A program made the position numbers and the translations under genes. Positions 14,557-30,757 of a DNA stretch of 64,000 nt are shown in pieces. The stretch comes from Candidatus Uhrbacteria bacterium (GTDB lineage: Bacteria > Patescibacteriota > Patescibacteriia > UBA9934 > GWF2-40-263). The notes under the pieces were generated by a model. The model saw nothing but the letters and a program-made list of their open reading frames with translations, did not search any database and was not told the origin of the DNA. The stretch covers positions 145,887-209,886 of the forward strand of contig JAHFIQ010000001.1 of assembly GCA_023246355.1 (NCBI GenBank). Direction: 5' to 3'. Positions within the stretch are counted from its first letter, which is position 1. Each line of letters begins with the position of its first letter.

Positions 14557-14558
14557 CT

Positions 14559-15188: not shown

Positions 15189-16255
15189 TGATCAACCGAA
15201 TCCTCTCCCAAATCAAAAGCACCATCGGCAACCTCACCGCCTCGATACGCGGGTTCGATTTGGCATACGTTGTTGAAGGTCACGACTGGTCGATCAAGCA
15301 TGATGGTCAATCGATCACCAAAGCTCTCAACCAACAACAGCTGTTACACGCCCGTACAACATTCACCTCTGTTGGCTTACGTAACCAAATGGTGCATTTC
15401 GGTTCGGTCAATACCTTTTTTACAAAAAAAGGCTGGCATGAACCTCACGCATCAAATCGTGTCATCCTTACATGGTTTCACGTGATAGACGGCGACCCGC
15501 GCATCAACCTTCTCGTTCCCATTCAACACCAGCTCCACGCCATCCATACGTCATGCGAACAAACCAAACGAACACTCACAGATGCCGGAATTGACGAAAA
15601 CAAAATCATCGTCATTCCCCTGGGGGTCGACGTTTCTCTTTTCACTCCCGGGACACCCGAGCAAAAACGAAACGCACGTGAACGATTAGGAATAGCTGCT
15701 GATCGGCTTGTGATCGGATCGTTTCAAAAAGACGGTATCGGATGGGGCGAAGGAGTGGAACCAAAACTGATCAAGGGACCTGACAGCCTTGTAGAAACTC
15801 TCGTCCGCCTCAAGGCGAACAATCCACTTGTTCTTCTGACGGGCCCGGCTCGGGGATACGTCAAACGCGAACTGACCAAACACAGAATTGACTACATCCA
15901 TACCTACCTTCAAGATACAAAAAACCTGCCAGCCATGTACCATGCACTCGACCTCTATCTCATCACTTCACGATTGGAAGGAGGACCGAAATCCCTCTTA
16001 GAAGCATGGGCAAGCGGTGTGCCAGTCGTATCAACACGTGTGGGGATGGTTCCAGACATCGCGATTCATGAACAAACAGTGCTCTTCACTGACGCCGAAG
16101 ATGTTGACGGTCTGGCACAGCTGTCACACAGACTCATGACCGATCAGACTCTCTCTGATCGTCTCGCCCGTCAGGCCCTCATCGTCGTACAGGACCATTC
16201 CTGGGACAAGATCGCTCGCCGGTATGTTGATGAGCTCTACCGTCCCCTGCTATGA
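15185..16255 (+). CDS. GT4 family glycosyltransferase
   Basis: The start is trimmed to MMINRIL, giving an ATGA overlap. The C-terminus reads RLEGGPKSLLEAWASGVPVVSTRVGMVPDI. Confidence 0.7.
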   Translation: MMINRILSQIKSTIGNLTASIRGFDLAYVVEGHDWSIKHDGQSITKALNQQQLLHARTTFTSVGLRNQMVHFGSVNTFFTKKGWHEPHASNRVILTWFHVIDGDPRINLLVPIQHQLHAIHTSCEQTKRTLTDAGIDENKIIVIPLGVDVSLFTPGTPEQKRNARERLGIAADRLVIGSFQKDGIGWGEGVEPKLIKGPDSLVETLVRLKANNPLVLLTGPARGYVKRELTKHRIDYIHTYLQDTKNLPAMYHALDLYLITSRLEGGPKSLLEAWASGVPVVSTRVGMVPDIAIHEQTVLFTDAEDVDGLAQLSHRLMTDQTLSDRLARQALIVVQDHSWDKIARRYVDELYRPLL

Positions 16256-19098
16256 AAATTCACATCCTTCATCCTCTTCGCGATGAACCTTGGGGTGGTG
16301 GAAACCAATTCCTTAAGGCGCTTAAAGCCGAGTGGACACGGCAAGGTGTTTTGAGCCTCACGGCTGAGGAGGCAGATGTGATTCTCATCAACAGTTATCC
16401 GTTTGGTGAGGAACACCTCTTTGATACCTTGTGGCGGATCAAAAAAATGCACCCAGAAAAAATCGTGGTCTACCGATTGGACGGCCCCATTTCTTTTATT
16501 CGACAAAATGATACAGAGGTTGATCGCATCATCCGTACGTGGAATCATCTCATTGCTGATGGAATCATTTTTCAGTCCTCTTGGTGTGAAGAAAAAAATA
16601 GAGAGACGTTTCAAATTTCCTCTGCCTATCAGTCCGTCATCCACAATGCTCCGGATCCAACGATCTTCTATCCAAGTCAAAAGAACCATCTACCCAGCCA
16701 ACGCATCAAACTGATCGCGACAAGCTGGTCCGCCAACCTGCGCAAGGGATTTGATCTCTATACCTATCTCGACCAGAACCTCGACTTCTCTCGGTATGAA
16801 ATGACGTTCGTTGGTAATTCCCCGGTCAAATTTACTCACATCAAAATGATCGAACCCCTTTGCTCACAGGATCTGGCCTCTCTTTTAAGAACACAGGATC
16901 TCTTCATCACCGCATCAAAATCTGATCCTTGCTCGAACTCTCTTATTGAAGCTCTTTCCTGCGGACTCCCAGCCGTAGCCATCAATGATGGTGGACACCC
17001 AGAACTGATCCGACATGGCGGAGAACTTTTCAAGGATACTCAAGACGTCCTGGAAAAAATTGATCGCGTTGCCAATGCCTATGCTTCCTACCGAGCACAA
17101 CTTCCCGTGTTTGATATTTCCACAGTGGCACACCGCTACTTCGACTTCTGCGAAAATCTCTGGCTGGAAACACAAAAAAAGCGATACACCCCTAAACAGA
17201 CTCGTCCTGTCGGCTTGATCAAACTCAAAGGGCAAATCCTTACGTGGACCATAAAAAAGAACCTTGGAGCGATTCGAAAAAAAACGCATTCTTTTCTTCG
17301 CTTCTCGCCTATGCCCCAGCAACGTCTTCCACATCTCATTCGGGTGATCTCTACGGGTTTCCGCGACTATCGAAAGGCGCTCATCATTCTCACGCTTCTG
17401 GGCTTCCTCGGAAGTCTGTTCGAAATTATCGGTATCAATGCTCTCATTCCTCTCCTGAGCTTTGTCCTCAAAGAAACATCGAATGAGATGAATCTCATTA
17501 CGGAGACGACCCAGCGGGTCTTTTCATTCTTCCACGTCAGTTTTGGCATCCAAGCGCTTCTCATTTTTATTTCCCTGCTCTTCATTTCTAAAGCGGCTGT
17601 CCTCCTTTTCTTTCAATACGTGCACATTCACGTCATTACGGATTATGAAAGCCAAGAGCGAAGCAGGTTGCTAAAAAAAATGCTCACGGCTGAGTGGTCC
17701 TTTCTCTCCACGCGAAAAATGGGATACCTAGACCAGGTCATCACACAGGATATTACCTGCGCCACCTACGTACTCAGAGATGTAGGTCGACTTATCCTCA
17801 TCCTCACCAACCTTCTCATCTATACAATCGTTGCCCTCACGATTTCACCAACGATCACCCTGATGACCCTCGTAACTGGAACCCTGTTCTTTTTCGGCTT
17901 TAAACCCTTGTTTAAAAAAACATCCAACACAGCACGAGCGTTTACCAACGACAGCAAACGTGTCTCGCATTTTATCAATCAAATTCTCCTTGGATTTAAA
18001 TCCATCAAAACCCAAGCCACGCTGTCTTTGGTTGTCAGTCAGGGCGAACAGCTATTCAGTCTTCTGAAAAAATCCCGTGTGAACCTCTACCTGTACTCGG
18101 GACTTGGCGGCATTATCGGTGAACCCATGATCATGATCTTTCTGCTACTCATGTTTGCTGTCTCTTACTCCTTACCGAACTTCAACTTTGGTGTTTTCAC
18201 CGTCACGCTCTATCTGATGCATAAAATGTTCAACTACGTACAAAGTGCCCAAGGAAAATTCCAAACCATCAGCGAATACCTTCCACATCTGGAAAGTAGC
18301 ATTCAACATCTTGCCGATGCACAGCAACATCAAGAACAGAAGGAGGGAACCCAACCCTTTACATTTCAGCACACCCTTGAATTTCAAGGTGTTGGATTCA
18401 AATACCAGGATCATCAGGACGTCCTAACGAACATTCAATTCAGAATACACAAGGGAGAAATGATTGGCCTCATTGGACCTTCAGGTTCAGGGAAAACAAC
18501 GATTATTGATCTGCTGTTGCGTCTCCTCGAACCCACGACTGGTTCAATTCTGATGGATGACAAACCTCTCAAAACGATGGCGTTAGACGCCTGGAGAAAA
18601 AACATCGGGTACGTCCCTCAAGATCTTTTTTTGTTAAACGAGTCCATTAAGGAAAACATTCGTTTTTTTGATGAAAGGATCACGGATCAGGACATACAAA
18701 ATGCCGCGACTGCTTCCCATCTTGACGAGTTTCTTAAGAACGAGCCCAATGGACTTGAGACACAGGTAGGTGAACGTGGCATCCACCTATCGGTAGGACA
18801 GCGACAACGCATCGTTCTTGCAAGAGCCCTTGTGAGAAAACCAGAAATTCTCATCCTTGATGAAGCCACCAGTGCTCTTGATCACGCGTCCGAAGAAGCC
18901 GTACAACGCACCCTGAAAAAACTCAAGGGACACATGACGATCATTCTCATTGCTCATCGACCATCAACCCTGCTGGATGTCGACCGCCTTGTGACCATCG
19001 CTCATGGCGTGACGACTGAATGTGGTACTCCAACGGATCTGCTCAATAACCCGTCCTCCTATTTTTCTCAGATGCACCATCCTCAACGGGCATCGTGA
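16252..19098 (+). CDS. Fusion protein: N-terminal GT-B glycosyltransferase domain + complete ABC exporter half-transporter (6-TM MsbA-like TMD + NBD)
   Basis: aa 1-330 are GT-like (SKSDPCSNSLIEALSCGLPAVAINDGGHPELI). aa 350-650 hold hydrophobic ABC_membrane helices. The NBD has Walker A GPSGSGKTT, the signature LSVGQRQR, Walker B ILILDEATSALD and the H-loop IAHR. The start has an ATGA overlap with the upstream stop. Confidence 0.75.
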   Translation: MKIHILHPLRDEPWGGGNQFLKALKAEWTRQGVLSLTAEEADVILINSYPFGEEHLFDTLWRIKKMHPEKIVVYRLDGPISFIRQNDTEVDRIIRTWNHLIADGIIFQSSWCEEKNRETFQISSAYQSVIHNAPDPTIFYPSQKNHLPSQRIKLIATSWSANLRKGFDLYTYLDQNLDFSRYEMTFVGNSPVKFTHIKMIEPLCSQDLASLLRTQDLFITASKSDPCSNSLIEALSCGLPAVAINDGGHPELIRHGGELFKDTQDVLEKIDRVANAYASYRAQLPVFDISTVAHRYFDFCENLWLETQKKRYTPKQTRPVGLIKLKGQILTWTIKKNLGAIRKKTHSFLRFSPMPQQRLPHLIRVISTGFRDYRKALIILTLLGFLGSLFEIIGINALIPLLSFVLKETSNEMNLITETTQRVFSFFHVSFGIQALLIFISLLFISKAAVLLFFQYVHIHVITDYESQERSRLLKKMLTAEWSFLSTRKMGYLDQVITQDITCATYVLRDVGRLILILTNLLIYTIVALTISPTITLMTLVTGTLFFFGFKPLFKKTSNTARAFTNDSKRVSHFINQILLGFKSIKTQATLSLVVSQGEQLFSLLKKSRVNLYLYSGLGGIIGEPMIMIFLLLMFAVSYSLPNFNFGVFTVTLYLMHKMFNYVQSAQGKFQTISEYLPHLESSIQHLADAQQHQEQKEGTQPFTFQHTLEFQGVGFKYQDHQDVLTNIQFRIHKGEMIGLIGPSGSGKTTIIDLLLRLLEPTTGSILMDDKPLKTMALDAWRKNIGYVPQDLFLLNESIKENIRFFDERITDQDIQNAATASHLDEFLKNEPNGLETQVGERGIHLSVGQRQRIVLARALVRKPEILILDEATSALDHASEEAVQRTLKKLKGHMTIILIAHRPSTLLDVDRLVTIAHGVTTECGTPTDLLNNPSSYFSQMHHPQRAS

Positions 19099-20237
19099 AC
19101 TCCCCTATGGTCTTGCTCTATTTATTCGCAAACGCAAAAGCCAGACAACAACCAACCAGTGGCAAGACTCCTTCTTCACAACGATTTTCCTTCTACGGGC
19201 TGGACGCGTTTTCACTGTCTAGCGAACATACGGTCTTAGACACACTCAACGACGAAGCTGCCTTGGAAACACACAGACGTGGAAAAATCATCGACGCCCT
19301 CTGCAATGGGATCCTGCATTACGTGGGTGGATCAGGTGGATCTTGGTACAAGCTCTGGCGCATGCGTAAGGCTATGAGCCAGTCTGATACGGTTGTTGCT
19401 ACCGCAGATCGGGTGGGAATACCTCTTGTTCTGCTTTCCTATTTTCATCTCATCCCCAAACGTCGAATAGTGTATGTGAGTATTGGATTACCAGAAAGAC
19501 TGCAAACCCTTAAACCTTTTTTTCGGCGTCTGTATCTCAACGCATTCCACCATGTGACCGATGAGGTCATCTGCTACGGCCACAAAGAACATCTGTTACT
19601 TCAACACGATCTTGGCCTACAAAAACCCAGGGTTTGGTTTGTGCCCTTTGGCGTGGACACGAACACCCTCATACCACAGGACCCCTCCACAGGACAGACG
19701 ATTGTCTGTGTTGGCGCTGATCCTCATAGGGACTTCCATTCACTCTTCATCCTGGCTGAGCGGCATCCGATGACCCCTTTCTTGGTCATCACCTCACGTG
19801 CACATCAACGGAAATGGAAGAGACTCAAGGTATCGATTCCAACCAACGTCACGCTCCAGTACGATCTTCCCTTTGTTGAAACGATGGAGGCAGTATCCCA
19901 ATCCAAATTTGTTGTACTCCCGGTGTTTGAAAATTCGTATTCCGGAGCAACCACAACCCTCTTGCAAGCGATGGCATTAGGAAAAGCCGTCATTGTGACC
20001 AAGACGGGTGCCATCGCAGATGGCTATCATCTTGCACACGAACAGAATGTTCTTTTCGTGCCACCAGAAGATATCGAGGCTTTAGATGTTGCCTTTACAC
20101 GCCTCTCAACGGACCCAGCATTGAGAATGGCACTGGGGGCAGCTGCCAGAGAAACCGTTGCGCGACATCTGAACTGGCAGAGGTATTCACATCAGATGTA
20201 TTCGATCATTACAGGGCATCAAACGTCTCCTCATTGA
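19095..20237 (+). CDS. Glycosyltransferase (GT-B, GT4/GT1-like)
   Basis: The C-terminal region reads VLPVFENSYSGATTTLLQAMALGKAVIVTKTGAIADGY. The GTG start overlaps the upstream TGA. ATG at 19107 is an alternative start. Confidence 0.55.
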   Translation: MNSPMVLLYLFANAKARQQPTSGKTPSSQRFSFYGLDAFSLSSEHTVLDTLNDEAALETHRRGKIIDALCNGILHYVGGSGGSWYKLWRMRKAMSQSDTVVATADRVGIPLVLLSYFHLIPKRRIVYVSIGLPERLQTLKPFFRRLYLNAFHHVTDEVICYGHKEHLLLQHDLGLQKPRVWFVPFGVDTNTLIPQDPSTGQTIVCVGADPHRDFHSLFILAERHPMTPFLVITSRAHQRKWKRLKVSIPTNVTLQYDLPFVETMEAVSQSKFVVLPVFENSYSGATTTLLQAMALGKAVIVTKTGAIADGYHLAHEQNVLFVPPEDIEALDVAFTRLSTDPALRMALGAAARETVARHLNWQRYSHQMYSIITGHQTSPH

Positions 20238-20284
20238 CCTCTCCACACGTCTGTGAAAACATGCAGACACGTTGGTATTTCTCT

Positions 20285-21358
20285 ATGCAACACATCGCTC
20301 TTATTGGCTGCGGAAGAGTCGCCTCACATATCGCACAATTTTTGGAACAGGGAATGCGCGGCGTTCAGGTCATACACGTTTGTGACATCGTCACCGAACG
20401 AGCAGATGCCATGGCCTTGCGGCTTGGGACTCACGCCGTCTATGACATGAGTGAGGTGTTACAAAACCCCGACGTGACGACGGTTTTGATTCTCACTGAA
20501 TCAGGAAATCATGGAACCCACGCACGTGAAGCCTTGCTTGCTGGCAAACATGTGATCGTTGAAAAGCCGATCGGATTAATTCCTGATGAGGTCATCGAAA
20601 ACGAACGCATCGCGAGAGAGAAAAACCTCCTGTATGCCGCCATCAAACAAAACAGATTTAATCCCGCGATCGAGCAATTAAAAAAAACATCTGACGCAGG
20701 ACGCTTTGGAAAACTGGTCCTTGGAAGTATTCGACTGATCTGGTGCAGACCGCAAGCCTACTACGAGGATGGCTGGCACGGCACCTGGGCCATGGACGGA
20801 GGGGTTATCAGCCAACAAGCCATCCATCATATCGATGCTCTCCAATGGATCTGTGGTCCAATCACCGAGGTTGTGAGCGCACAAACAAATGCGTTGAACC
20901 GCCTGGAAGCTGAGGACACAACCGTGGCTCTTGTTCGATTCCAAAACGGAGGGCTTGGAACGATTGAGGCAACAACCGCCGCACGGCCGACGGATAAAGA
21001 AGCATCGATCACGATCGTTGGAGAAAAAGGCATGGCACAGATTGGTGGCGTGGCACTAAACAACATCACCCAATGGGAATTTACAGAACCACACCCAGAG
21101 GATCAAAACACACAGAAGCACTACTCACAAGAAGTTCCAAATGGATATGGTCTTTCACACGGACCCCTCCTCCAGGAAATCTTCGACCGTCTCAACCGGG
21201 GAAACATCATCCCCCCCATTACGGCATTGGATGCGCTATCGAGCGTACGGATCGTTCACGCCCTGTACAAAAGCGCCGAGGAACATCGCTGGGTAACGGT
21301 GGATGAACAGGTCCGTTCTGCGCGTTTGGGAAATCCATCCACGCGAGCAACTGTATGA
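20285..21358 (+). CDS. Gfo/Idh/MocA family NAD(P)-dependent sugar oxidoreductase
   Basis: The start is trimmed to MQHIALIGCGRVASHIA (dinucleotide-binding N-terminus). LLAGKHVIVEKPIGLIPDE is the EKP motif. The C-terminal alpha/beta dimerisation domain is present. Confidence 0.75.
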   Translation: MQHIALIGCGRVASHIAQFLEQGMRGVQVIHVCDIVTERADAMALRLGTHAVYDMSEVLQNPDVTTVLILTESGNHGTHAREALLAGKHVIVEKPIGLIPDEVIENERIAREKNLLYAAIKQNRFNPAIEQLKKTSDAGRFGKLVLGSIRLIWCRPQAYYEDGWHGTWAMDGGVISQQAIHHIDALQWICGPITEVVSAQTNALNRLEAEDTTVALVRFQNGGLGTIEATTAARPTDKEASITIVGEKGMAQIGGVALNNITQWEFTEPHPEDQNTQKHYSQEVPNGYGLSHGPLLQEIFDRLNRGNIIPPITALDALSSVRIVHALYKSAEEHRWVTVDEQVRSARLGNPSTRATV

Positions 21359-22269
21359 CCAGTCCTCTGCTCAACGCTGTCGACAATGGCGCCGCTTTGA
21401 ATCTGGGTGATTCCCTGTATTACGCCGCCATCCTCGGAACACACCCTTCCAAAGGAGCTCGCTCCCCGGTTTTATGGAATGCGGCTTTCAAAAACCTTGG
21501 AATCGACGCGCAGATGCATCCCATGGATGTCACGGCTGAAAACCTTCCGTTCGTTATAGACGAACTGAAAAAAGACCCTCGATTCATCGGAGGCGCCGTC
21601 ACCACCCCCCACAAACAAACCATCAGTTCACTGTTGGACGCACTCGAGGAAGAGGCCGAACTCATCGGCGCAGTAAATGCTCTCTATCGCAAGGATGGAA
21701 AACTCGTGGGAGCAAATACTGATGGTGCAGCAGCCCTGAAAAGTTTAGAAGCACACGCGGGTTCCATCCATGGAAAGACCGTTCTTCTCCTGGGTCTGGG
21801 AGGAGCCGGACGAGCCGTTGGGATCTATCTTGCCCGAGCGATCGGCAAAGAAGGCAAGCTGCTGCTCAGCAACCGAACGATCGACGTCGCCCAAAACGTC
21901 CAAGAAAAAACAGCATCATTTTGTCCCACAACGGTGATTCCTTGGCCTGTGGATGCGATAACCCTCTCACAATCTGATATCCTCATAAACGCCACAACCA
22001 TTGGCTTTGCAGGATCGGGGCAAGAGGATTTCTCTCCCATTGATGCCACTCTGATGCTGTCGCTTAGGCCAACCTCATTCGTCTTTGACCTCATCTATCA
22101 ACCCTTGGAGAGTCCTTTGCTGCGGCTTGCGCGGACGCGAGGGGCACAAACAATCAACGGCAAAGAGATGAACCTCGAGCAAGCCATCATTGCCTTTGAA
22201 AAAGCTGCTCGTGGAGTGGGGCAACAAGTTCCCGAAGGTTCGGTAAAGCCTCTCATGCAATCCGTTTAA
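21355..22269 (+). CDS. Shikimate/quinate 5-dehydrogenase (AroE) family reductase
   Basis: GTHPSKGARSPVLWNAAF matches G-x-P-x-x-HS-x-SP-x-x-HN. VTTPHK carries the catalytic Lys. NTDG carries the catalytic Asp. LGLGGAGRAVGIYL is a Rossmann motif. NRT and INATTIG are present. The start has an ATGA overlap. Confidence 0.7.
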   Translation: MTSPLLNAVDNGAALNLGDSLYYAAILGTHPSKGARSPVLWNAAFKNLGIDAQMHPMDVTAENLPFVIDELKKDPRFIGGAVTTPHKQTISSLLDALEEEAELIGAVNALYRKDGKLVGANTDGAAALKSLEAHAGSIHGKTVLLLGLGGAGRAVGIYLARAIGKEGKLLLSNRTIDVAQNVQEKTASFCPTTVIPWPVDAITLSQSDILINATTIGFAGSGQEDFSPIDATLMLSLRPTSFVFDLIYQPLESPLLRLARTRGAQTINGKEMNLEQAIIAFEKAARGVGQQVPEGSVKPLMQSV

Positions 22270-22278
22270 CATTTTTCT

Positions 22279-23205
22279 ATGAAAGACATTAGTGAAACCG
22301 ATCTCAAAAATAACCTTCCACTCTCCTGCAAACCTGGAATGAAGATTCCTGTGCACGTAGGCAACACCCAGGTGGGTGGCGAGGGACTCACGATCATGGC
22401 AGGACCGTGCACGGTGGAGAGTCGTGAACAAGTTTTCTCAATCGCGAAGGCTGTGAAAAATGCCGGAGCGACGATTCTTCGTGGGGGCGTCTTCAAACCT
22501 CTCACCTTCCCTTACGGAGACCCACTCTTACTCGCCGACGCTGGGACAGACGGAGAAAACCTTCCTCGCACACACATTCTTTCCAAACAAGAAACCCTTG
22601 AACGGGCAGAGCGCCGATTCAGGTATTTTGCTGAGGCAGGAAAATCCGTTGGACTCCCAATTGTTTCAGAAGCAATTGTGGCGGATGCGATTGAGATGAT
22701 GGAGCCATATGTGGACATGTTCCAAGTCGGCTATCGATCCATGTTCAACATGGACTTGCTCTATCGCTTATGCAAAACCGAAAAGCCCGTGCTCTTGAAA
22801 CGTCATGCGGGAGAATCGATCCGAAGCCTTTTGGGAGTGGTCGAACATTTCTATGCACGTGGAAAAACAAACCTCGTGGTCTGTGAGCGTGGCGTTGCTG
22901 TCCCACACACGCACAATAGTGCTTCTCGCGCCATCCTGGATATCCAAGCGATTGTCGCTCTGAATGAATACGCCCCTACCATTCCGGTGATCGCTGATCC
23001 AAGCCACTCCACGTTTAAACGGTCGTACGTTCAAGCGATGAGCCGCGCGGCGATAGCCGCTGGAGCCGACGGTCTTCTGATCGATGTCCATCCTGATCCA
23101 GAACACGCTTGGGTCGATCCGCTCCAAGCGCTCAATTTTGATCAGTTTGGCGAACTCATGAAGGATGTACGATCCATCGCTCTCACGGTCGGCAGAACTC
23201 TATGA
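22279..23205 (+). CDS. DAHP synthase type I-beta / KDO8P synthase family PEP-aldolase with a divergent phosphate-binding motif
   Basis: [50 protein letters not shown] and [40 protein letters not shown] align closely with type I-beta DAHPS / KdsA. The canonical KPRTSPYSFQG motif is [10 protein letters not shown] here. Confidence 0.7.
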
Positions 23206-24611
23206 CCCAACCGCTCGTCTCCATCATCATACGCACAAAAAACGAGGAGGCATGGATCGGCCGCACCCTTCGTGCTGTTGAAACTCAAACATACCGAAAT
23301 TACGAAGTCATTATTGTGGACACAGGATCTACAGATCGCACGCTTGAAATCGCAAAAAAATTTCCCTGCCAGATTGTGTGCGACGAAACAGTTCCCTATC
23401 GTCCGGGTCGTGTGCTCAACAGAGGCATCCACGCATCGAACGGTTCGTTGTTGGTTCTCTTATCTGCTCATGCCGTCCCAGTGGATGAGACATGGCTTGC
23501 ACAACTGGTCTCCACCATTTTGGAAGACGAACAAACCGCTGGGGTCTATGGGCGTCAACTCCCGCTTCCCGAATCCTCTCCGTTTGATAAGCGTGATCTG
23601 TTGATCACCTTTGGACCAGAAAAAAGGGTTCAGCGAAAAGACAACTTTTTCCATAACGCAAATGCGATTATTCGTCGCGACCTGTGGGAACGCATACCGT
23701 TTGACGAGACGGCAACCAATATTGAAGACCGTCTCTGGACCAAGGCGGTTCAAGAACATGGATTTTCTGTAACCTACGAACCCGAAGCACGCGTCTATCA
23801 CCATCATGGCATCCATCAATACGGAAACGTCAGCCGTTGTGAAACCACCGTGACTATTTTAGAACAGTTAGAAACGGTTGGTGTCTCGGCACAGGAGATG
23901 GATCATCAACTTGCATACGAGGGCGCACAACAGATGCTCACCATCTTGCCTATGAGCCATGAGGACACGGAACGGCTGTTGGAAATCCCCTATGGATCTG
24001 ATCAACCATTTCTTAACCATGTCCTGAGGGAAATCGCGCGATCCTCACTGATCCACCGGGTCGTTGTGGCAACCGCACATCCAATCGCCCTTGAACTGGC
24101 GAAGACGTTTGGATTTGAAACGTTTTTTTATCTGACACCCATGTTCAATGGTCCAGAAGCCTCTTTAGAAGAGGTCCTTCAAGCCACACTCACGTTTGTT
24201 AAAGAAACATCTGGGTTCACCCCTTCGCATGTCCTTTTTTTGAAAGGAACCCACGTCTTTCGCAGCGCGGAACTCATGAATGCGCTTATCAAAAAAGCGT
24301 TCATCGAAAAGGAAGACTCTGTCTTTGTGGCAAGAAAAGAATACCGCGCCGTGTGGGCTTTAGAGCAAGGGACGTTCGTGCGCAAGGACAGTGGCTTTAT
24401 CAAACACGAACAAAAAGAGCCACTCTGGATGGGATACATGGGTCTAGGATGCATCACCAAAACAGCGTTCATCCAAGCTGGAAATCGATTAGGAGAATCG
24501 GTAGCCGTTGTCCCCATGAATAACGCCTTGATGCTCCTGGACATCCAGAATGCTACAGAGCGGGAAATGGCAAAACATCTGTTCGTAAAACGCCACGACA
24601 TGCATCTATGA
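23202..24611 (+). CDS. GT2 (GT-A) glycosyltransferase fused to a C-terminal degenerate NeuA/SpsF-like cytidylyltransferase domain
   Basis: The N-terminus [42 protein letters not shown] is a GT2 signature. The C-terminal half ([20 protein letters not shown]...[24 protein letters not shown]) has the same layout as the next gene. ATGA overlap. Confidence 0.6.
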
Positions 24612-25309
24612 ACCCGCCAAACATTGTCGCCATTGTCCCTGCCAGAGGTGGATCAAAAGGGCTTCCAAAAAAAAATCTGCAACTTCTCAATGGACATCCG
24701 TTGATCACCTATGCGATTGCTGCGGCAAAACGCTGTGAACGAATCGCGCGCGTAATCGTCGCAACAGACGATCAAACAATTGCTGATGTTGCCGTACGCT
24801 CTGGAGCAGAGGTTCCCTTCTTGTTGCCACAGGATCTCGTCCAAGACCATACACGTTTGGAAGACACGTTTGCCTATGTCACGCAGTGGCTGCTCAAACA
24901 AGATCCTACGATTGAGTACATCTGCTTTGTTGATCCCACGCGACCTGTTCGACCACCTCATTTCTTGAATGATGCCCTGGGAGCTCTTCTTGAGAGTGGC
25001 CAGGATTCCGTCATCAGCGGAGTACACGAACATAAGTCGGTCTGGAAAAAAACAGATGCTCGGCTTGAACGGCTGGATAGTGGATTTACTGTTCGGCAAC
25101 TCAAGCCTGACCAGATCTACGTGTGCTATAGCGGCCTAATCACATGCACGAAAGCCTCGTTCATGGCAAAGGGAGAACGTCTGGGTCCCACTGTTCTTAT
25201 CTGGGAATTCGATGACCACAACATGACCGTCGACGTTCACACCAAGGACGACCTGCGTTTAGCCGAGCTGATTCTCAACGAGTGGCGTGACCGCTATGTG
25301 ATACCGTAG
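24608..25309 (+). CDS. CMP-sugar cytidylyltransferase (acylneuraminate cytidylyltransferase NeuA/PseF family)
   Basis: VAIVPARGGSKGLPKKNLQLLNGHPLITYAIAAAKRCERIARVIVATDD is the CTP_transf_3 P-loop. ATGA overlap. Confidence 0.75.
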   Translation: MNPPNIVAIVPARGGSKGLPKKNLQLLNGHPLITYAIAAAKRCERIARVIVATDDQTIADVAVRSGAEVPFLLPQDLVQDHTRLEDTFAYVTQWLLKQDPTIEYICFVDPTRPVRPPHFLNDALGALLESGQDSVISGVHEHKSVWKKTDARLERLDSGFTVRQLKPDQIYVCYSGLITCTKASFMAKGERLGPTVLIWEFDDHNMTVDVHTKDDLRLAELILNEWRDRYVIP

Positions 25310-25313
25310 ATGT

Positions 25314-26840
25314 ATGACCTCATGGCCTACTTCATTTAACGCCCAAGCTCGACACATAAACGACTCTCAGCAACGGGAGTTCGCTGACCACTGGTACCTC
25401 CATCAAGAAAAAGATCTCACGATCCAAGATGGAATTTCTTATGGCGGCCTTCTTCGTTTGCCTGTTTTTTTGTTGATGACTGAAACATTTCAAAAAAAGA
25501 CGCGCCTGGACTCGATATGGAAACTCGTAAAAACGATTGTTGCAATGCTCTGGATGTTTGCCTCTCTTCTTGTGCGCCCCCCAAAAAAAAATCCCCAAAA
25601 CCAACATTCTGGTCGTGAATATGCCTTCCTCTATGCCAAGCACGCGCCTACAGGAGCTATCGCAAAAACGCTCGATCCCATCATCCAAGCACTCAATACG
25701 CGTGGCGAATCCGTCCGTCTATTTACCTTTGACGAGAAGCAGCGCGATGCTCTACAAACCCAGTACCCCACGCTGCCTTGCGTGAATCTATCGGAAGGAT
25801 CCGTTTCCTTCAGTCATGTCTGGTCGCTTTTCAGGATGCTTGTGCGAACCACCTGTATCCTTCTCTTCTCAGCCAAACGCGCGAATCTATTCGATGCCCT
25901 TGGCCAATGGTACTATCATGCTCCAAGATTTCTGCAGATAGATCAGTCCCTGGAAACAGAGCTGCACAAAGACACAATCATCGTTTCAGCGACCGAGATG
26001 CATCCCCATGAACGACTCGTATTTACGCGTGCCAAGACACGAACCATTTCTACCATCCTCATTCAACATGGCGTTACGGACCAGACAATAAAAAATCAGG
26101 TAGTGAACACTCCCTCGATCGCATCACACGTGTTCGTTTGGGGGGAACATGCAAAACGCTATTTTCTCAAACATGGCGTGCCAGAACAACGTGTGACTGT
26201 CACAGGTTCGCCAGCACTCACCTCCCTATTTCACTCTCTCAAACGACCTTCTCGCGAAACAATACTCACACCATTTGCTCTCCCGAATCGTGCATTCATT
26301 CTCTTTTCCGGACAACATTTCGATCGTGAAAAAAATACGGCTCTGTGCACATTGATGCTCGAGGCGTACAAACGCTTCTCCTCAATGACACAAGAACCGC
26401 CCGCACTGCTTATCACTCCACACCCAGCAAAAAGTCCTTACTCCACGGTCTCTTTTTACACGAACCTCGTGGAAAAACATGACCTCAATCTGGAAGGGAA
26501 CGTCTTTGTGAGATCTGCAAAAAACCAAATTGGTGAACTGCTTGAAATGGCGGATCTTCTGATCACCTCTTCCTCGACCCTCCATGTGGAAGCGGCGATC
26601 AAAGGAATCCCTGTGATCCTCCTCAATATCGATGGAGTTCCCGACATGGATATGGTTACGGACAAAGCCGCACGAGCTGCCCATACGGAAGAAGAACTCA
26701 CAGATGCTCTACGATCGCTTCAAAATCCAATCGTCCGGGAATCTCTCCAGACGCATGTGCCTCGCTTTCTTGAGTCCTATATCTCCTACCCTGATAATGC
26801 TGTCACACGAGTCACCGAAAAACTTTTGACCATCCGTTAA
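25314..26840 (+). CDS. GT-B glycosyltransferase with HP and SS motifs (sialyltransferase / KpsC-KpsS capsule Kdo-transferase-like)
   Basis: The C-terminal domain reads FILFSGQHF...LLITPHPAKSP...IGELLEMADLLITSSSTLHVEAAIKGIPVILL. The HP motif and SS(S)T motif are arranged as in CMP-ulosonic-acid-dependent GT-B transferases. The N-terminal ~150 aa are unassigned. Confidence 0.45.
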   Translation: MTSWPTSFNAQARHINDSQQREFADHWYLHQEKDLTIQDGISYGGLLRLPVFLLMTETFQKKTRLDSIWKLVKTIVAMLWMFASLLVRPPKKNPQNQHSGREYAFLYAKHAPTGAIAKTLDPIIQALNTRGESVRLFTFDEKQRDALQTQYPTLPCVNLSEGSVSFSHVWSLFRMLVRTTCILLFSAKRANLFDALGQWYYHAPRFLQIDQSLETELHKDTIIVSATEMHPHERLVFTRAKTRTISTILIQHGVTDQTIKNQVVNTPSIASHVFVWGEHAKRYFLKHGVPEQRVTVTGSPALTSLFHSLKRPSRETILTPFALPNRAFILFSGQHFDREKNTALCTLMLEAYKRFSSMTQEPPALLITPHPAKSPYSTVSFYTNLVEKHDLNLEGNVFVRSAKNQIGELLEMADLLITSSSTLHVEAAIKGIPVILLNIDGVPDMDMVTDKAARAAHTEEELTDALRSLQNPIVRESLQTHVPRFLESYISYPDNAVTRVTEKLLTIR

Positions 26841-26844
26841 CCGT

Positions 26845-27852
26845 ATGACCTGTCCTGTCTGCCACAGTCCAACCGCACGACGATGGTGTTCTTGCCATGA
26901 TCACTTGATGAAAAAACCTCTTCCGGGTCGAACGTTTTATCGTTGTCTTTCCTGCGACTTGGTCTACCTATCACCACAGACGTCGACCACAGACTACGAG
27001 GAACACTACGGTGAAGGGTATATTTCTCACAAGCACGTGCCTTCAAAACCCCCTCGTGAATCGTATGCTTCTCAGAAGCTCCTCCAACTCCGAGGGCAGA
27101 TCTGGCAAGAGCTCTTTCAGGTACCCATGGGTCTGGTATCCTCGGGCCTATTCACTCGATGGATGCTCCTGCTTATACGAAGATCTGTTTTCTTTCGCTC
27201 TACACCACTCAAATGCGATGGGAACGGAAAGAAGCTGTTAGATGTCGGAAGCGGAGCCGGACAGTTCTTGACGGCGCAGTCACAACGAGGCTGGAACGTC
27301 CATGGCTTGGAACCTGCACCAAGAATGGTTGAGGAGAGCAGGGCGCGCGGACTGGATGTTCGCCAGGGATTTTCCATCGCACCGTATTTTCCTACACCAA
27401 CCTTTCATTTCATTGTCCTCAATCAAGTGTTTGAACATCTCACAGACCCACAGGTCATGTTAAAAGAAGGACACGATGCTCTCAGAGAAAACGGAATCCT
27501 TTACATGAACATGCCAAACGCACGCAGTCTTCCCGCATGGCTCTTTCGTGGCTTTTGGTTTAATCTAGATGCACCCCGACATAATCTCCTCTTCTCCCCT
27601 TCGGTCATCAGACGCCTACTCGTACAAGAGAACTTTGAAGTGCTCATGCTCTACACGTCCTCAAGTACAAAGGGGTTCACGGGCTCCATAGAGTACCTGC
27701 TCCGTGATGTATTTCACCTTCCACTCCCCGAAGGATCTGTGAGAAAAAATAAATGGTTCAACCGCTGTTTAGTACCATTCGTTCGCCTTATTGATTGGTT
27801 TGGCGTGGGAGACAATCTCCATGTCATTGCTCGAAAAAAATCCATCCTATGA
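26845..27852 (+). CDS. SAM-dependent methyltransferase with N-terminal zinc-ribbon (sugar C/O-methyltransferase-like)
   Basis: CPVCHS...CLSCDL is a Zn ribbon. LLDVGSGAGQFL is SAM motif I. FIVLNQVFEHLTDP is present. Confidence 0.65.
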   Translation: MTCPVCHSPTARRWCSCHDHLMKKPLPGRTFYRCLSCDLVYLSPQTSTTDYEEHYGEGYISHKHVPSKPPRESYASQKLLQLRGQIWQELFQVPMGLVSSGLFTRWMLLLIRRSVFFRSTPLKCDGNGKKLLDVGSGAGQFLTAQSQRGWNVHGLEPAPRMVEESRARGLDVRQGFSIAPYFPTPTFHFIVLNQVFEHLTDPQVMLKEGHDALRENGILYMNMPNARSLPAWLFRGFWFNLDAPRHNLLFSPSVIRRLLVQENFEVLMLYTSSSTKGFTGSIEYLLRDVFHLPLPEGSVRKNKWFNRCLVPFVRLIDWFGVGDNLHVIARKKSIL

Positions 27853-28826
27853 AGGAAGCTCTTTGTCTTCTGTGCAACCAAGACAACGCATCGGTACTGC
27901 TCATCAATAAAGGGGATCCTTTCCGGACAAGCATCAACGGACGGGAAACACGCTATGTGGTCTGCAACCTGTGTGGTTTTGTGTATCAGAATCCAAAACT
28001 AGATGAACAGGAAATTGAAAACCTGTACACAAAAGAGACCTACGATAAAAAAGACACACGTATCACGGAAGCCTATCAACAGAAAAAAGAAGAATACGCA
28101 AAACAGAGCTTTGACTGGATCGCCAAACACAGACAGGTTTCAACACAGACGAACGAATCTAAAATTCTCGATATCGGATGCAATACAGGCGCCCTCTTAT
28201 CCCTGTTCAAACAGCAAGGTTGGCAATGTTATGGGGTTGAACCTTCACAAAACATGTCGACCATAGCGAAAGAACGCTACGGCCTGACACAGGTCTCAAC
28301 TCACCTTTTTAAAGAAGGACTGTTCGCTCCAGCCTCGTTCTCCTTTGTCTCCCTTCTCCACACGCTTGAACACCTTGAAAACCCAGCGATCATGCTCAAG
28401 GAAATAGCGCAGGTCTTGAATCCCGATGGCACGGTGTACATCGAGGTGCCGGATATCTACCAACCAAAAAGTTGCTTCTATACATCCTACTTTGCCGCAC
28501 CGCACCTCTACGTTTTTTCCCCTCATTCTCTAGAGCGACTTCTCGCCCAACACGGTTTTCAGACCATCGCCCGTGGTGCCGTTCCTCGTGGAATCTGCGT
28601 GCTTGCAAAGAAAGCGGAACCGCGCGACCTTCCCCTCACAGACGATTCCACGAACATCATCTTTCAGATCACACAGTATAAAAAGATTCATGACCGCCAC
28701 GCGTTTCTCTATCGATACATCGCCCAGAGCCTTCCTGCGCGTATCCTCATCAAACTCCGCCTTCCGATTATCAGCTCTGCGCTCTCCCGATGTACAGAAC
28801 GGGTCCGTGTCAATAAAATCATCTAA
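27849..28826 (+). CDS. SAM-dependent methyltransferase with N-terminal zinc-ribbon (paralog-type of previous)
   Basis: The start is trimmed to MKEALCLLCNQ, giving an ATGA overlap. Cys pairs CLLC...CNLC are present. ILDIGCNTGALLSLF is SAM motif I. Confidence 0.65.
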   Translation: MKEALCLLCNQDNASVLLINKGDPFRTSINGRETRYVVCNLCGFVYQNPKLDEQEIENLYTKETYDKKDTRITEAYQQKKEEYAKQSFDWIAKHRQVSTQTNESKILDIGCNTGALLSLFKQQGWQCYGVEPSQNMSTIAKERYGLTQVSTHLFKEGLFAPASFSFVSLLHTLEHLENPAIMLKEIAQVLNPDGTVYIEVPDIYQPKSCFYTSYFAAPHLYVFSPHSLERLLAQHGFQTIARGAVPRGICVLAKKAEPRDLPLTDDSTNIIFQITQYKKIHDRHAFLYRYIAQSLPARILIKLRLPIISSALSRCTERVRVNKII

Positions 28827-28835
28827 ATCATTTCC

Positions 28836-29924
28836 ATGCCCTCCGAGTGGTTGAACAATCTTCGCACACACCTCTTGCTCTTTCTTGAACAACAAAGAGA
28901 TGAAACCATCCCTGGATATTTTCGTTATGCGTTCTCTGGTGATGTCTTTCAAAATAAAAATCGATCAAACCTCGCCGGAAGTATCTTTGCGCTCAAGCTG
29001 TACCACATGCTCAACATGCACCAAGCGGCACCCACGCATTCGGCCATTGAACGCATTCTGAGCTTCCAAAAGTCAGATGGAACGATCTACGATCCGTTTA
29101 TCTATCGAAAAAGTTTTATAAGAAATCTTCTTTCAAATCTTTCAAAAGCCAAGACACACAACCTTAATAACGATGAATACATTCGAGCGGAAACACGACA
29201 GGCCTACTCTGCCCTTCTTCTGTATGACATCATCCCTGATCATCTATACGCCAACATCCCAACACAACCTGATGCAGTCAAAAAATACATTGACACGCTC
29301 GACTGGAAGCGACCATGGGGAGCTGGAAGCCACGTAAGTCACCTCTTGTTTTTTTTGTCCCTCTTGAGAAAGGCAAAACGGCTAGATGAGACAACGTACA
29401 ACGATGCTCGCGAAATGACTCTGAGCTCTCTCTCTTCTCTTCAGCACAACTCTGATGGCACTTGGTATACCGGCCTTCCATCGCCCAGACAAAAAGTGAA
29501 TGGTGCCATGAAAGTGATCACCGGCCTGCTCATCGACAATGTCCCCTTCACGTATCCTGATCGCTTGATTGATCTGTGTCTGCACACTGACACGCAACAG
29601 ACATCCGATGCGTGTGATCAAATAAATCAAGTACTCGTATTGCGCTACGCAGACGAACAGTGCCAGCACAGTCATCGTCGGGACGAGATATTCACATTCT
29701 GCGAAAAAATCCTCTGGCAATGGCAAGACTATTATCATCAAAACGAAGGAGGTTTTTCCTTTCACAAAAATCGTGCGAATGATCGCTATTACGGTGCAAA
29801 CGTAAGCCGTGGACTGAACGAACCAGACATCCATGGGACGGTTCTGTTTGTCTGGGGACTGAGCCTGATGGCGAAACTGATTCCGCTCCCAGAATTGGAC
29901 TGGCTACAAGAAATGAAAAGTTGA
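28836..29924 (+). CDS. Hypothetical protein with repeated Q/S-x-DG-[TW]-[WFY] motifs (possible alpha/alpha-toroid fold)
   Basis: The motifs are QKSDGTIYDP, WGAGSHVSHLLFFLSLL, HNSDGTWYTG and NEGGFSFH. The spacing resembles prenyltransferase, terpene-cyclase or AGE-type (alpha/alpha)6 repeats. The family is not assigned. Confidence 0.35.
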   Translation: MPSEWLNNLRTHLLLFLEQQRDETIPGYFRYAFSGDVFQNKNRSNLAGSIFALKLYHMLNMHQAAPTHSAIERILSFQKSDGTIYDPFIYRKSFIRNLLSNLSKAKTHNLNNDEYIRAETRQAYSALLLYDIIPDHLYANIPTQPDAVKKYIDTLDWKRPWGAGSHVSHLLFFLSLLRKAKRLDETTYNDAREMTLSSLSSLQHNSDGTWYTGLPSPRQKVNGAMKVITGLLIDNVPFTYPDRLIDLCLHTDTQQTSDACDQINQVLVLRYADEQCQHSHRRDEIFTFCEKILWQWQDYYHQNEGGFSFHKNRANDRYYGANVSRGLNEPDIHGTVLFVWGLSLMAKLIPLPELDWLQEMKS

Positions 29925-30757
29925 TGTCTATGACTGTTTCCATTCTCCTTTCCGTCTTCAACGGCGAACGTTTCCTGCGACAAGCTGTCGACAGTCTTCT
30001 GACACAGACCTACCGAGATTTCGAATTGTGGATCGTGAATGACGCATCAACAGATCAAACACCACAAATTTTGGATCAACTCTCCCGTGAAGATTCTCGA
30101 GTCCGTATCATCACAAACGAGAGGAACCTCGGTCTCACAAAATCACTCAACCTCGCCCTTGCCCAAGCTCAAGGCTCCTCCATCGCTCGTATGGATGCCG
30201 ACGATATCGCTCTCCCTGAGCGGCTTGAAAAACAAGTCGCCTATCTTGATGCCCATCCTGATATTGACGTGGTCGGAACCGCCTATCAATTTATCAACGC
30301 ACAGAATCGCGTGATCGGTGAGCGTCATCCGTCGACAGACGATGAACAGATTCGCCGTAAACTCATTATTCACAATCCATTCCTCCACAGCTCAGTCCTG
30401 ATCCGAAGAGCACTCCTTGACCAAGTCCATGGCTATGACGAACGTTTCCGCCGCGCACAAGACTACGACTTATGGATGCGACTGGAGCCTCTGACGAAAC
30501 TCGCCAACCTCCCGAATATTCTCATGCAAAAACGTTTCACAACTGACATGATCTCGTATGCATCTGAACGTGAACAAATCAAAACAGCTGTGACCATCCG
30601 TGTAGCCGCCATCCGTCGAGGTCAGTATCCTTGGTGGTGCGCCATCTATCTGATTAAACCGTTCCTCGCCACCATCCTCCCGCTTCCCTTGGTCCGATTC
30701 TTGCGGACCCACGTCTTTGGACAAAAAATCTATGCTCACCCCTTCGTACAAAAATAG
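29921..30757 (+). CDS. GT2 (GT-A) glycosyltransferase
   Basis: VSILLSVFNGERFLRQAVDSLLTQTYRDFELWIVNDASTDQT and RMDADD match the DxD region. ATGA overlap. Confidence 0.75.
   Translation: MMSMTVSILLSVFNGERFLRQAVDSLLTQTYRDFELWIVNDASTDQTPQILDQLSREDSRVRIITNERNLGLTKSLNLALAQAQGSSIARMDADDIALPERLEKQVAYLDAHPDIDVVGTAYQFINAQNRVIGERHPSTDDEQIRRKLIIHNPFLHSSVLIRRALLDQVHGYDERFRRAQDYDLWMRLEPLTKLANLPNILMQKRFTTDMISYASEREQIKTAVTIRVAAIRRGQYPWWCAIYLIKPFLATILPLPLVRFLRTHVFGQKIYAHPFVQK

Follow-up and report, generated by a model that had tools for sequence, protein, structure and literature searches.

A synthase encoded in a surface-glycan operon of the Uhrbacteria DNA analysed here (64,000 nucleotides; hereafter, the window) probably joins PEP to an aldose that lacks an E4P-type phosphate, yielding a 3-deoxy-2-ulosonic acid that, once activated with CMP, is incorporated into a surface glycan. 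The loss of phosphate-binding residues, together with the surface-sugar gene clusters in which the gene lies, makes a Kdo- or sialic-acid-like sugar acid for surface polysaccharide the most likely product.

The synthase and its acceptor pocket

The gene and its altered regions are as follows.

22279..23205, + strand: predicted PEP-dependent 3-deoxy-2-ulosonate synthase of DAHP-synthase fold (type I-beta derived), 308 aa
22495..22515, + strand: KPLTFPY in place of the canonical acceptor-phosphate motif KPRTSPY, beta2-alpha2 loop, residues 73-79
22516..22605, + strand: subfamily-specific insertion of 30 residues directly past the motif, residues 80-109
22798..22824, + strand: KRH...R182 in the beta5-alpha5 loop, with the Gly of canonical KRG replaced by His176 and a new Arg182
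22903..22914, + strand: PHTH motif in the beta6-alpha6 hairpin, where canonical CERGIRTFE becomes CERGxxxPHTHN

The open reading frame starts with ATG, and its stop codon shares the ATGA at 23202-23205 with the start of the next gene; these co-directional, overlapping genes indicate that the synthase is translationally coupled within the glycan operon. The protein matches Pfam DAHP_synth_1 (E 1e-39) and aligns by HMMER to the P. furiosus DAHP synthase (DAHPS) 1zco (E 2.5e-54). Its nearest solved structures are type I-beta DAHPS (33-38% identity, TM 0.76-0.88), and its AF2 model has a pLDDT of 90.9.

The PEP-binding and metal-site blocks, described as conserved in the earlier note, were all located in the open reading frame: GPCTVES (residues 42-48, nt 22402-22422), VCERG (201-205, nt 22879-22893), DPSHS (240-244, nt 22996-23010) and DVHPDPE (269-275, nt 23083-23103). 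The metal ligands C44, H243, D269 and D280 are retained, position 269 being Glu in most homologues, as are the counterparts of the PEP binders of the solved enzymes (R68, K73, R153, K174 and R204). All 239 clade members (40-88% identity) keep these metal and PEP residues, and mean column identity across phyla is 72%, which reflects strong purifying conservation. With the binders of the PEP phosphate and carboxylate and the metal site conserved, the protein is, on sequence grounds, a member of the PEP-dependent alpha-carboxyketose synthase superfamily. Metal-free forms, with Cys replaced by Asn, also occur in the clade.

Within the acceptor loop, alignment to 1zco pairs K60-P-R62-T-S64-P-Y with K73-P-L75-T-F77-P-Y, so that Arg is replaced by Leu and Ser by Phe, with the motif Thr (T76) unchanged. 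In the structures from E. coli, T. maritima and P. furiosus, the E4P phosphate is bound by the Arg and Thr of KPR(T/S). The change from KPRTSPY to KPLTFPY that had been read from the DNA earlier, with Leu and Phe in place of Arg and Ser, therefore stands, and only the wording 'Ser/Thr' proved imprecise, since T76 is kept. Of the 119 close homologues (60-88% identity), 118 have L75 and all have F77, whereas canonical relatives carry R (90/100) and S (89/100) at the same motif positions; the broader clade has L, C, A or M at 75 and F at 77 throughout (120/120). The L75 and F77 codons each lie one base away from an Arg and a Ser codon, respectively. The identical synthase protein nevertheless occurs on 12 independent contigs, which, with the conservation of both residues across the homologues, speaks against chance or sequencing error. 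Judged by this conservation, KPLTFPY is a family signature and not a one-off.

The motif is accompanied by further changes. The insertion measures 30-31 residues in the 119 subfamily members versus 5-8 in the broader clade and the canonical enzymes; D87 within it is invariant and R97 is conserved at 94%. The HMMER alignment to 1zco breaks at this insertion, which is modelled at a pLDDT of ~90. Both H176 and R182 are invariant in the subfamily (119/119) and in the broader clade (120/120), whereas canonical relatives have G at position 176 (85%) and E, D or K at position 182. H210, of the PHTH motif, falls in the alignment at the second conserved Arg of canonical CERGIRTFE (R in 86% of canonical relatives) and is His in 118/119 subfamily and 113/120 broader-clade sequences. 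Other departures from the canonical enzymes are QIGARN to QVGYR(H/S), Gly to F246 and Leu to W278, and the clade has a conserved MKDIS at its N-terminus, unlike type I-beta DAHPS. The loop Arg residues of KPR and GIR in the canonical enzymes have both been replaced, with aromatic or hydrophobic gains at L75, F77, Y152, F246 and W278. From these residues the clade appears to have lost the phosphate pocket, and R182 (clade-wide) and R97 (in the insertion) may be candidate replacement Arg residues for it. The insertion, QVGYR(H/S), KRH, R182, PHTH, F246 and W278 had not figured in the earlier note.

Placement among PEP-dependent synthases

The synthase falls beneath the cut-off of every curated DAHPS and KDO8PS model. 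It scores 233, 269 and 193 against cut-offs of 268, 335 and 279 for the NCBIfam DAHPS models TIGR01361, NF006421 and NF009239, and 85 and 79 against 242 and 314 for the KDO8PS models, whose KANRS motif it lacks. When 1.84 billion representatives were searched, the subfamily came out as a single 50% cluster at 426 bits, below which came intermediate KPxTFPY forms at 278 bits and canonical DAHPS at <=212 bits. Clade-wide searches returned at least 7998 and at least 8000 candidates within threshold, sets that may overlap and may include canonical DAHPS. Plasmid and phage collections held only canonical DAHPS (<=40% identity) and no subfamily member, and no description of the clade or its cassette was found in curated families or the searchable full-text literature.

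We consider it likely that the synthase descends from type I-beta DAHP synthase and is predicted to act as a metal-dependent, PEP-using alpha-carboxyketose synthase. With the type I-beta enzymes (P. furiosus 1zco, A. pernix 1vs1, T. maritima 1rzm; AroF/AroG-type) it shares the TIM-barrel, a Cys/His/Glu(Asp)/Asp metal site, the PEP-binding Lys and Arg and an N-terminal beta-hairpin; it differs in KPLTFPY, PHTH, KRH with R182, GARN to GYRH, the 30-aa insertion and the MKDIS N-terminus, and it sits in a glycan/CMP-sugar context where they sit in an aro context. KDO8P synthase (KdsA) has superfamily and chemistry in common with it and makes a product that is CMP-activated and used in glycans, but identity is ~20%, the score is 55 bits versus ~190 bits for DAHPS, and the synthase lacks both the KANRS motif and KdsC or KdsD partners.

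The closest functional analogy is the NeuB family (NeuB, PseI, LegI), which uses PEP and a non-phosphorylated aldose, with a CTP_transf_3 cytidylyltransferase acting directly next and a surface-glycan cluster around it. NeuB nevertheless belongs to another branch of the superfamily: the synthase reaches 20.2 bits against the Pfam NeuB cut-off of 22.1 and has no SAF domain. True NeuB is often encoded beside the broader-clade synthase, so the two are not redundant. BagF and FevY, of aminohydroxybenzoate pathways, likewise exemplify a type I-beta DAHPS paralogue recruited outside primary aromatic synthesis, but the synthase scores 185 bits against a model cut-off of 700 and lacks a secondary-metabolite context.

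Glycan operon and conserved cassette

The operon and the neighbours of the synthase are as follows.

11698..31899, + strand: surrounding glycan operon, ~20 kb, with a UDP-uronate-4-epimerase-like SDR, GT4s, five methyltransferases, a GT-ABC exporter fusion and a GT2
20234..21358, + strand: GFO/IDH/MocA oxidoreductase (WlbA-like; Pfam), with a 4-nt overlap with the next gene
21355..22269, + strand: shikimate-dehydrogenase-family (AroE-like) NAD(P) oxidoreductase (Pfam, NCBIfam; all models beneath cut-off)
23202..24611, + strand: fusion of a GT2 domain and a cytidylyltransferase-like domain (Pfam, ortholog alignment)
24608..25309, + strand: NeuA/PseF-like CMP-ulosonic-acid synthetase (Pfam CTP_transf_3 1e-21; intact PARGGSKGLPKKN loop)
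25314..26840, + strand: GT-B-like protein, 508 aa (BFO_1060 / 'surface carbohydrate biosynthesis' type)

The GFO/IDH/MocA oxidoreductase is ~40% identical (1e-65) to PDB 3q2k/3q2i, which we take to be WlbA UDP-GlcNAcA 3-dehydrogenases, and scores 88 bits, beneath cut-off, against the NCBIfam UDP-GlcNAc 3-dehydrogenase model. Compared with 1nvt, the AroE-like protein retains VTTPHK, GAVN, NTDG, IYQP and the catalytic Lys/Asp, with SxS changed to ARS; its family includes the 5-ketofructose reductase 7cok. The GT2 fusion has S-x-H in place of the GT2 DxD and, by family-level analogy, may serve the new sugar as its transferase or as a nucleotide-sugar hydrolase. The P-loop of its C-terminal domain is without basic residues in CPR copies and partly retains them in other lineages, and we considered from the sequence that this domain might be a second active cytidylyltransferase. 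The CMP-ulosonic-acid synthetase carries the NeuA P-loop PARGGSKGLPKKN and matches NeuA structures at 2e-22 and the PseF model at 113 bits (beneath cut-off). The GT-B-like protein, a possible CMP-sugar transferase, lies outside the universal core, with orthologs in CPR loci L004-L006 only.

Five of these genes, encoding the WlbA-like dehydrogenase, the AroE-like dehydrogenase, the synthase, the CMP-ulosonate synthetase and the GT2 fusion, recur as a cassette in about eight phyla, with hosts among Uhrbacteria, Parcubacteria, Saccharibacteria, Staskawiczbacteria, Thermodesulfobacteriota, Omnitrophota, Victivallales and Planctomycetales as well as in the cultured Desulfovibrio mangrovi, whose synthase orthologue is N1030_13710. 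A contig scan gave at least 12 new subfamily loci, and canonical DAHPS loci among the matches listed served as the negative control. In the comparison of subfamily with canonical loci, a CTP_transf_3 cytidylyltransferase neighbours the synthase in 14 of 15 subfamily loci versus none of 68 canonical loci (Fisher 6e-15, the loci not being phylogenetically independent); the corresponding counts are 11/15 versus 0/68 for the GT2 fusion, 11/15 versus 1/68 for GFO/IDH/MocA and 11/15 versus 3/68 for the AroE-like gene.

In three loci, as in the L011-type cassette, IolO-like and IolB genes take the place of the AroE-like/GFO pair, with the synthase unchanged. GT30 Kdo-transferase-like genes lie alongside in L011, L015 and L087. 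The broader KPxTFPY clade has the order GFO - synthase - AroE-like - (NeuB) - GT2 - CTP3 - CTP3. No HAD phosphatase was found in the window operon, and no HAD phosphatase or KdsC-type gene in the cassette at seven of the eight Pfam-annotated loci (L001-L003 and L084-L087). The exception, L088 of the broader clade, has a GmhB-type HAD adjoining an SIS gene, a position that makes it look like part of a heptose (GmhA/GmhB) route.

Taken with the adjacent intact NeuA/KdsB-type cytidylyltransferase, the synthase is predicted, with better than even confidence, to form a CMP-ulosonic-acid biosynthesis cassette. The genes aroB, aroD, aroK, aroA and aroC were found neither in the 64-kb window nor in the related cassette loci examined. 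The proposal made from the DNA alone, that the enzyme serves sugar modification and not aromatic biosynthesis, is supported by the glycan operon, by a cassette spanning about eight phyla with its cytidylyltransferase neighbour, by the lack of any other shikimate gene in 64 kb and by DAHPS and KDO8PS scores beneath the cut-offs.

Proposed pathway and alternatives

We infer the reaction, its phosphate-free acceptor, the order of steps and the product as follows. The WlbA-like 3-dehydrogenase and the AroE-like ketoreductase would prepare the acceptor, in the simplest form by net epimerisation via a keto intermediate; the pair might instead tailor the product, for example the CMP-sugar after its synthesis. 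The synthase would then join C3 of PEP to the acceptor aldehyde, freeing phosphate and giving a Kdo/DAH-like 3-deoxy-2-ulosonic acid, with no need for a phosphatase step. The NeuA/PseF-like enzyme, encoded two genes downstream past the GT2 fusion, would make the CMP-sugar, and the fusion and/or the GT-B protein would transfer the sugar to the polymer built and exported by the operon. The roles given here to the GFO/AroE-like pair and to the GT2 fusion follow family-level analogy. The family-wide loss of Arg and Ser and the HAD-free cassette at seven of eight loci would fit an acceptor that is non-phosphorylated or differently substituted.

Set against a phosphate-free acceptor are the kept T76 and the residues R182, H176, H210, H212 and R97, which together could rebuild an anion site for phosphate or carboxylate. 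The glycan role would then be kept, with E4P, A5P or some other sugar phosphate bound at the rebuilt site, a reading we regard as rather unlikely and one that also needs a phosphatase encoded elsewhere to act ahead of CMP activation, on the model of the Kdo pathway. Across the clade, the active-site loops have indeed gained an Arg and three His residues, besides R97 in the insertion; P. furiosus DAHPS accepts several sugar phosphates; and an HAD hydrolase lies near one broader-clade locus, L088. That hydrolase, however, pairs with an SIS gene in the manner of GmhA/GmhB, the window operon and loci L001-L003 and L084-L087 have no HAD or KdsC-type gene, and the synthase has exchanged its KPR and GIR Arg residues and acquired L75, F77, Y152, F246 and W278.

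A more conventional account, in which an ordinary DAHP synthase and the adjacent AroE form a remnant or minimal shikimate operon for aromatic compounds, draws on the DAHPS fold beside a shikimate-dehydrogenase-family gene and on the label '3-deoxy-7-phosphoheptulonate synthase' that public pipelines give to homologues. It is very improbable and largely refuted by genomic context: the synthase and the AroE-like protein both score beneath every curated equivalog cut-off, the five other aro genes are missing from the window and related loci, cytidylyltransferase and glycosyltransferase neighbours mark 14 of 15 subfamily loci and none of the 68 canonical ones among the matches listed, and IolO-like and IolB genes can replace the AroE-like/GFO pair while the synthase stays the same. 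To our knowledge, CPR bacteria also generally lack amino-acid biosynthesis. The chance that the protein is a catalytically dead paralogue, acting as a scaffold or sugar-binding protein, is slighter still; beyond the altered acceptor motif nothing specific favours it, and against it stand the metal and PEP residues kept invariant in all 239 clade members, down to 40% identity, and by the purifying conservation across phyla.

Extending the preferred reading of a CMP-activated ulosonic acid, we tentatively suggest, as a joint proposal that is on balance doubtful, that the MKDIS/KPxTFPY/KRH/PHTH clade stands alongside DAHPS, KDO8PS and NeuB as a fourth, so far unrecognised, major branch of the PEP-dependent synthases of sugar acids, making a new CMP-activated ulosonic acid widespread in uncultured bacteria, including CPR. 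In this proposal the acceptor would be a uronic acid, presenting a carboxylate instead of a phosphate and supplied as the C3-epimer by either of two interchangeable pairs (WlbA-like and AroE-like, or IolO-like and IolB), and the product would be a 3-deoxy-ulosaric (dicarboxylic) acid, such as a Dha-like or C9 diacid.

If the preferred reading is true, the cassette represents a new route to a Kdo- or sialic-acid-like surface sugar on a DAHPS rather than a NeuB scaffold, portable as five genes and spread over many phyla, and it would offer a direct genetic handle on new CMP-activated sugar acids and aid cell-surface studies of episymbiotic CPR bacteria. Recent nucleotide-sugar profiling has shown that unassigned CMP-activated sugar-acid species exist (bioRxiv 10.64898/2026.04.20.719630). 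The clade also provides a clean natural experiment in acceptor-pocket re-specification within the PEP-dependent synthase superfamily. Through the label '3-deoxy-7-phosphoheptulonate synthase', organisms including ultra-small CPR bacteria are credited with a shikimate-pathway entry step that they almost certainly lack.

The synthase and its acceptor pocket

The synthase ORF (22279–23205, + strand, ATG start, 308 aa) matches Pfam DAHP_synth_1 (1e-39), its Pfam NeuB score of 20.2 bits being sub-threshold (cut-off 22.1). Among solved structures it is closest to type I-beta DAHP synthases, with the P. furiosus enzyme 1zco in front (2.5e-54) and those of A. pernix, T. maritima, Listeria and Geobacillus next; its match to KDO8P synthases is much poorer (approximately 1e-14). 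Foldseek searches with a confident AlphaFold2 model (pLDDT 90.9, 88 homologues used) returned the same DAHP synthase structures (TM 0.76–0.88, 33–38% identity) and none closer. All conserved blocks quoted in the earlier note are present in this ORF and in place.

Conserved blocks of the synthase (residues, motif)
42–48, GPCTVES
73–79, KPLTFPY (nt 22495–22515)
201–205, VCERG
240–244, DPSHS
269–275, DVHPDPE

Residue mapping was read from a HMMER alignment to 1zco in P. furiosus numbering, which recovers the published metal ligands C31, H201, E227 and D238. The synthase aligns C44, H243, D269 and D280 with these ligands, and R68, K73, R153, K174 and R204 with the PEP binders of solved enzymes. 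Since all equivalents map, the catalytic core is intact, in agreement with the earlier reading that the PEP and metal-site blocks are conserved.

The Arg and Thr of the KPR(T/S) motif hold the acceptor phosphate (R99/T100 in E. coli, R133/T134 in T. maritima), and the KDO8P synthase equivalent is KANRS. Here, K60-P-R62-T-S64-P-Y of 1zco lies opposite K73-P-L75-T-F77-P-Y, so that the claimed replacement of the phosphate-motif residues stands for Arg to Leu and Ser to Phe but not for the motif Thr, which is retained. Further changes had gone unmentioned: a 30-residue insertion (residues 80–109) immediately C-terminal to KPLTFPY, QIGARN to QVGYR(H/S) in the synthase and its subfamily, KRG to KRH, the gain of R182, CERGIRTFE to CERGxxxPHTHN with H210 opposite the second conserved canonical Arg, and the substitutions G>F246 and L>W278.

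As each of the L75 and F77 changes is a single base from an Arg or Ser codon, a lone case could be noise. The identical protein occurs on 12 contigs, and homologues at 60–88% identity carry L75 in 118 of 119 and F77 in 119 of 119 cases, the equivalent columns in canonical relatives being Arg (90/100) and Ser (89/100). When 1.84 billion cluster representatives were scanned with HMMER, the subfamily appeared as a single 50% cluster at 426 bits, below which scores fall to 278 bits and then to ≤212 bits for ordinary DAHP synthases. Following up the intermediate matches (homologues P0122, P0125, P0126 and P0145) revealed another large group, of 283–300-aa proteins, which share the N-terminal MKDIS..D, KP(L/C/A/M)TFPY, KRH, R182 and PHTH with the subfamily, lack the insertion and keep GARN. 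Because this broader clade also carries the altered motif, sequence comparison identifies the Arg/Ser loss as an old, clade-defining switch and places the focal synthase in a derived subfamily inside the KPxTFPY clade.

Within the broader clade, the metal-ligand Cys is replaced by Asn (GPN..E) in 23 of 120 members, for example P0145, a division mirroring the known metal-dependent/metal-independent split of KDO8P synthases. Separately, in two long matches labelled DAHPS (P0123 and P0124, 423–465 aa) a canonical KPRTSPY enzyme is tandemly duplicated within the chain; these proteins inflate bit scores in the cluster-representative search and may be assembly artefacts.

A glycan operon and its portable cassette

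The synthase lies in a co-directional, mostly overlapping gene run (11698–31899, + strand), 9 nt after the AroE-like stop codon and sharing an ATGA overlap (23202–23205) with the next gene.

Genes of the glycan region (coordinates, strand where assigned, product)
2029–3306, −, cohesin-domain protein
4263–6011, −, cohesin-domain protein
6319–7629, Bac_transf initiating transferase, upstream of the operon
7636–9669, +, Wzy_C/O-antigen-ligase-like membrane protein
9666–11807, −, convergent second such protein, with C-terminal TPR repeats
11698–12660, +, first operon gene, SDR most like UDP-uronate 4-epimerases
16252–19098, +, GT4-like domain fused to ABC exporter (transmembrane and ATPase), 948 aa
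20234–21358, +, GFO/IDH/MocA oxidoreductase
21355–22269, +, AroE-like protein
22279–23205, +, synthase
23202–24611, +, GT2 fused to cytidylyltransferase-like domain
24608–25309, +, CTP_transf_3 cytidylyltransferase, NeuA P-loop PARGGSKGLPKKN
55257–56669, second Bac_transf initiating transferase, more GT4 genes after it

The run also holds GT4 glycosyltransferases and five methyltransferases; a GT-B-like protein, then further methyltransferases and glycosyltransferases, lie 3′ of the cytidylyltransferase. The ABC part of the exporter fusion is a separate protein of approximately 590 aa in related loci. The second Bac_transf gene and its GT4 genes may form a second glycan locus, and the cohesin-domain proteins, just upstream of the glycan region, are unusual in a CPR-type genome.

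A subfamily member was found in at least 15 loci among the matches listed, from Uhrbacteria, other Patescibacteria, Parcubacteria, Saccharibacteria and Staskawiczbacteria as well as Desulfovibrio mangrovi, Thermodesulfobacteriota, Omnitrophota, Victivallales and Planctomycetales. Neighbours homologous to the corresponding window gene were counted there and, as a control, in 68 canonical loci from the same scan.

Cassette neighbours (subfamily loci; canonical DAHP synthase loci)
Cytidylyltransferase, 14/15; 0/68
GT2 fusion, 11/15; 0/68
GFO oxidoreductase, 11/15; 1/68
AroE-like protein, 11/15; 3/68

Fisher P values range from 6e-15 to 3e-8 for loci that are phylogenetically non-independent. Broader-clade loci are ordered GFO–synthase–AroE-like–(NeuB)–GT2–CTP3–CTP3, or are radical-SAM variants. 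This subfamily-specific cassette, with the same logic in the broader clade, therefore settles the biological role: the synthase belongs to a portable cassette for a putative CMP-activated sugar acid and is not an aromatic-pathway gene. The sugar-modification role proposed in the earlier note is thus upheld by the cytidylyltransferase counts and by the lack of aroB, aroD, aroK, aroA and aroC among window ORFs of at least 150–180 aa. A divergent GT30 (Kdo-transferase/WaaA-like) gene adjoins the cytidylyltransferase in three related loci (L011:10393–11718, L015:1194–1802 and L087:11857–13245), which suggests a Kdo-like product.

Partner enzymes

The GFO protein matches 3q2k and 3q2i over its full length (approximately 40% identity, 1e-65); these are labelled only ‘oxidoreductase’ and ‘dehydrogenase’ in the database, and we take them to be WlbA UDP-GlcNAcA 3-dehydrogenases. 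The AroE-like protein retains the Lys/Asp dyad as well as most of the residues that contact substrate, and its family includes a keto-sugar reductase (5-ketofructose reductase, 7cok). GT2 enzymes normally carry DxD, in place of which the fusion has a conserved Ser-x-His (LSAHxVP); its cytidylyltransferase-like domain is devoid of the NeuA P-loop basic residues in CPR copies; copies from other lineages retain some of them.

The GFO/AroE-like pair is missing from three subfamily loci, where an IolO-like gene and IolB take the same position upstream of the synthase (L010:8389–9991, L011:7111–8711 and L012:2710–4417), immediately 5′ in L010 and L011 and separated by an unannotated 358-aa ORF in L012. 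The IolO-like ketose-3-epimerase scores 291 bits against a 300-bit cut-off (5-keto-L-gluconate epimerase model) and matches TM0416 at 2e-52; IolB scores 222 bits, above its equivalog cut-off of 205. Wherever the flanking sequence is long enough, a subfamily locus carries one of the pairs, the two being mutually exclusive, and the synthase signature residues are the same beside either (P0084 compared). This looks like non-orthologous displacement, and we infer interchangeable routes to one epimerised aldose: the GFO/AroE-like pair would oxidize and then reduce one carbon, the IolO-like/IolB pair would combine aldose–ketose isomerisation with ketose 3-epimerisation.

Characterised members of all four partner families and of the first-SDR family act on carboxylate-bearing sugars, which allows two readings. 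Either the intermediates are uronic acids and the acceptor would have a carboxylate instead of the phosphate, or the carboxylate would be the ulosonic acid's own and the enzyme pair would tailor the product. The operon's SDR matches 5u4q (6e-93 over residues 6–239) and, clearly, the UDP-glucuronate 4-epimerases 6zl6 and MoeE5, strengthening the uronic-acid theme around the cassette.

Proposed reaction and family affiliation

Beyond the observed fold, catalytic residues, motif switch and cassette specificity, we infer substrates and step order. The synthase probably condenses PEP with an aldose lacking an E4P-type phosphate, giving an ulosonic acid destined, as a CMP-sugar, for a polymer. PEP and a divalent metal would bind as in DAHP synthases, and the distal end of the acceptor would occupy a pocket given a new lining by L75, F77, Y152, F246 and W278, with the insertion as its cap. 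PEP C3 would attack the aldehyde, releasing phosphate and yielding a 3-deoxy-2-ulosonic acid, which the NeuA/PseF-like enzyme could convert directly to the CMP-sugar with no phosphatase step (no HAD-type phosphatase was found in the window operon); the GT2 fusion and/or GT-B protein would transfer the sugar to the polymer. The main rival keeps the glycan role and supposes a phosphorylated acceptor, its phosphate held by a site rebuilt from R182, H176, H210, H212 and R97; we consider it unlikely, with the canonical Arg and Ser lost across the clade, even though the retained motif Thr favours it. A shikimate remnant, which the DAHP synthase fold and the adjacent AroE-like gene would accommodate, is effectively excluded, with no aroB, aroD, aroK, aroA or aroC among window ORFs of at least 150–180 aa; so too, at marginally longer odds, is a dead paralogue, the catalytic residues being in place.

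By descent and fold the synthase derives from type I-beta DAHP synthases, but it departs from them in acceptor motif, in scores (under the curated cut-off of every NCBIfam DAHPS and KDO8PS model) and in pathway context; because these three defining features fail, we rejected assignment as a DAHP synthase. Existing names for clade proteins are automatic, ‘DAHP synthase’ or ‘hypothetical’. We found no curated family or paper on the KPxTFPY clade in the full-text literature, a search outside which much subscription literature lies, and ‘undescribed’ here means not found rather than proven new. The nearest working likeness is probably NeuB/PseI/LegI, which join PEP to a non-phosphorylated aldose ahead of CMP activation in glycan clusters; the synthase is not a NeuB member, and it often co-occurs with a true NeuB. 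Three broader-clade loci (L085, L086 and L088) have a true NeuB (+SAF) and two separate cytidylyltransferases within the synthase cassette, and hence two PEP-condensing enzymes per cluster.
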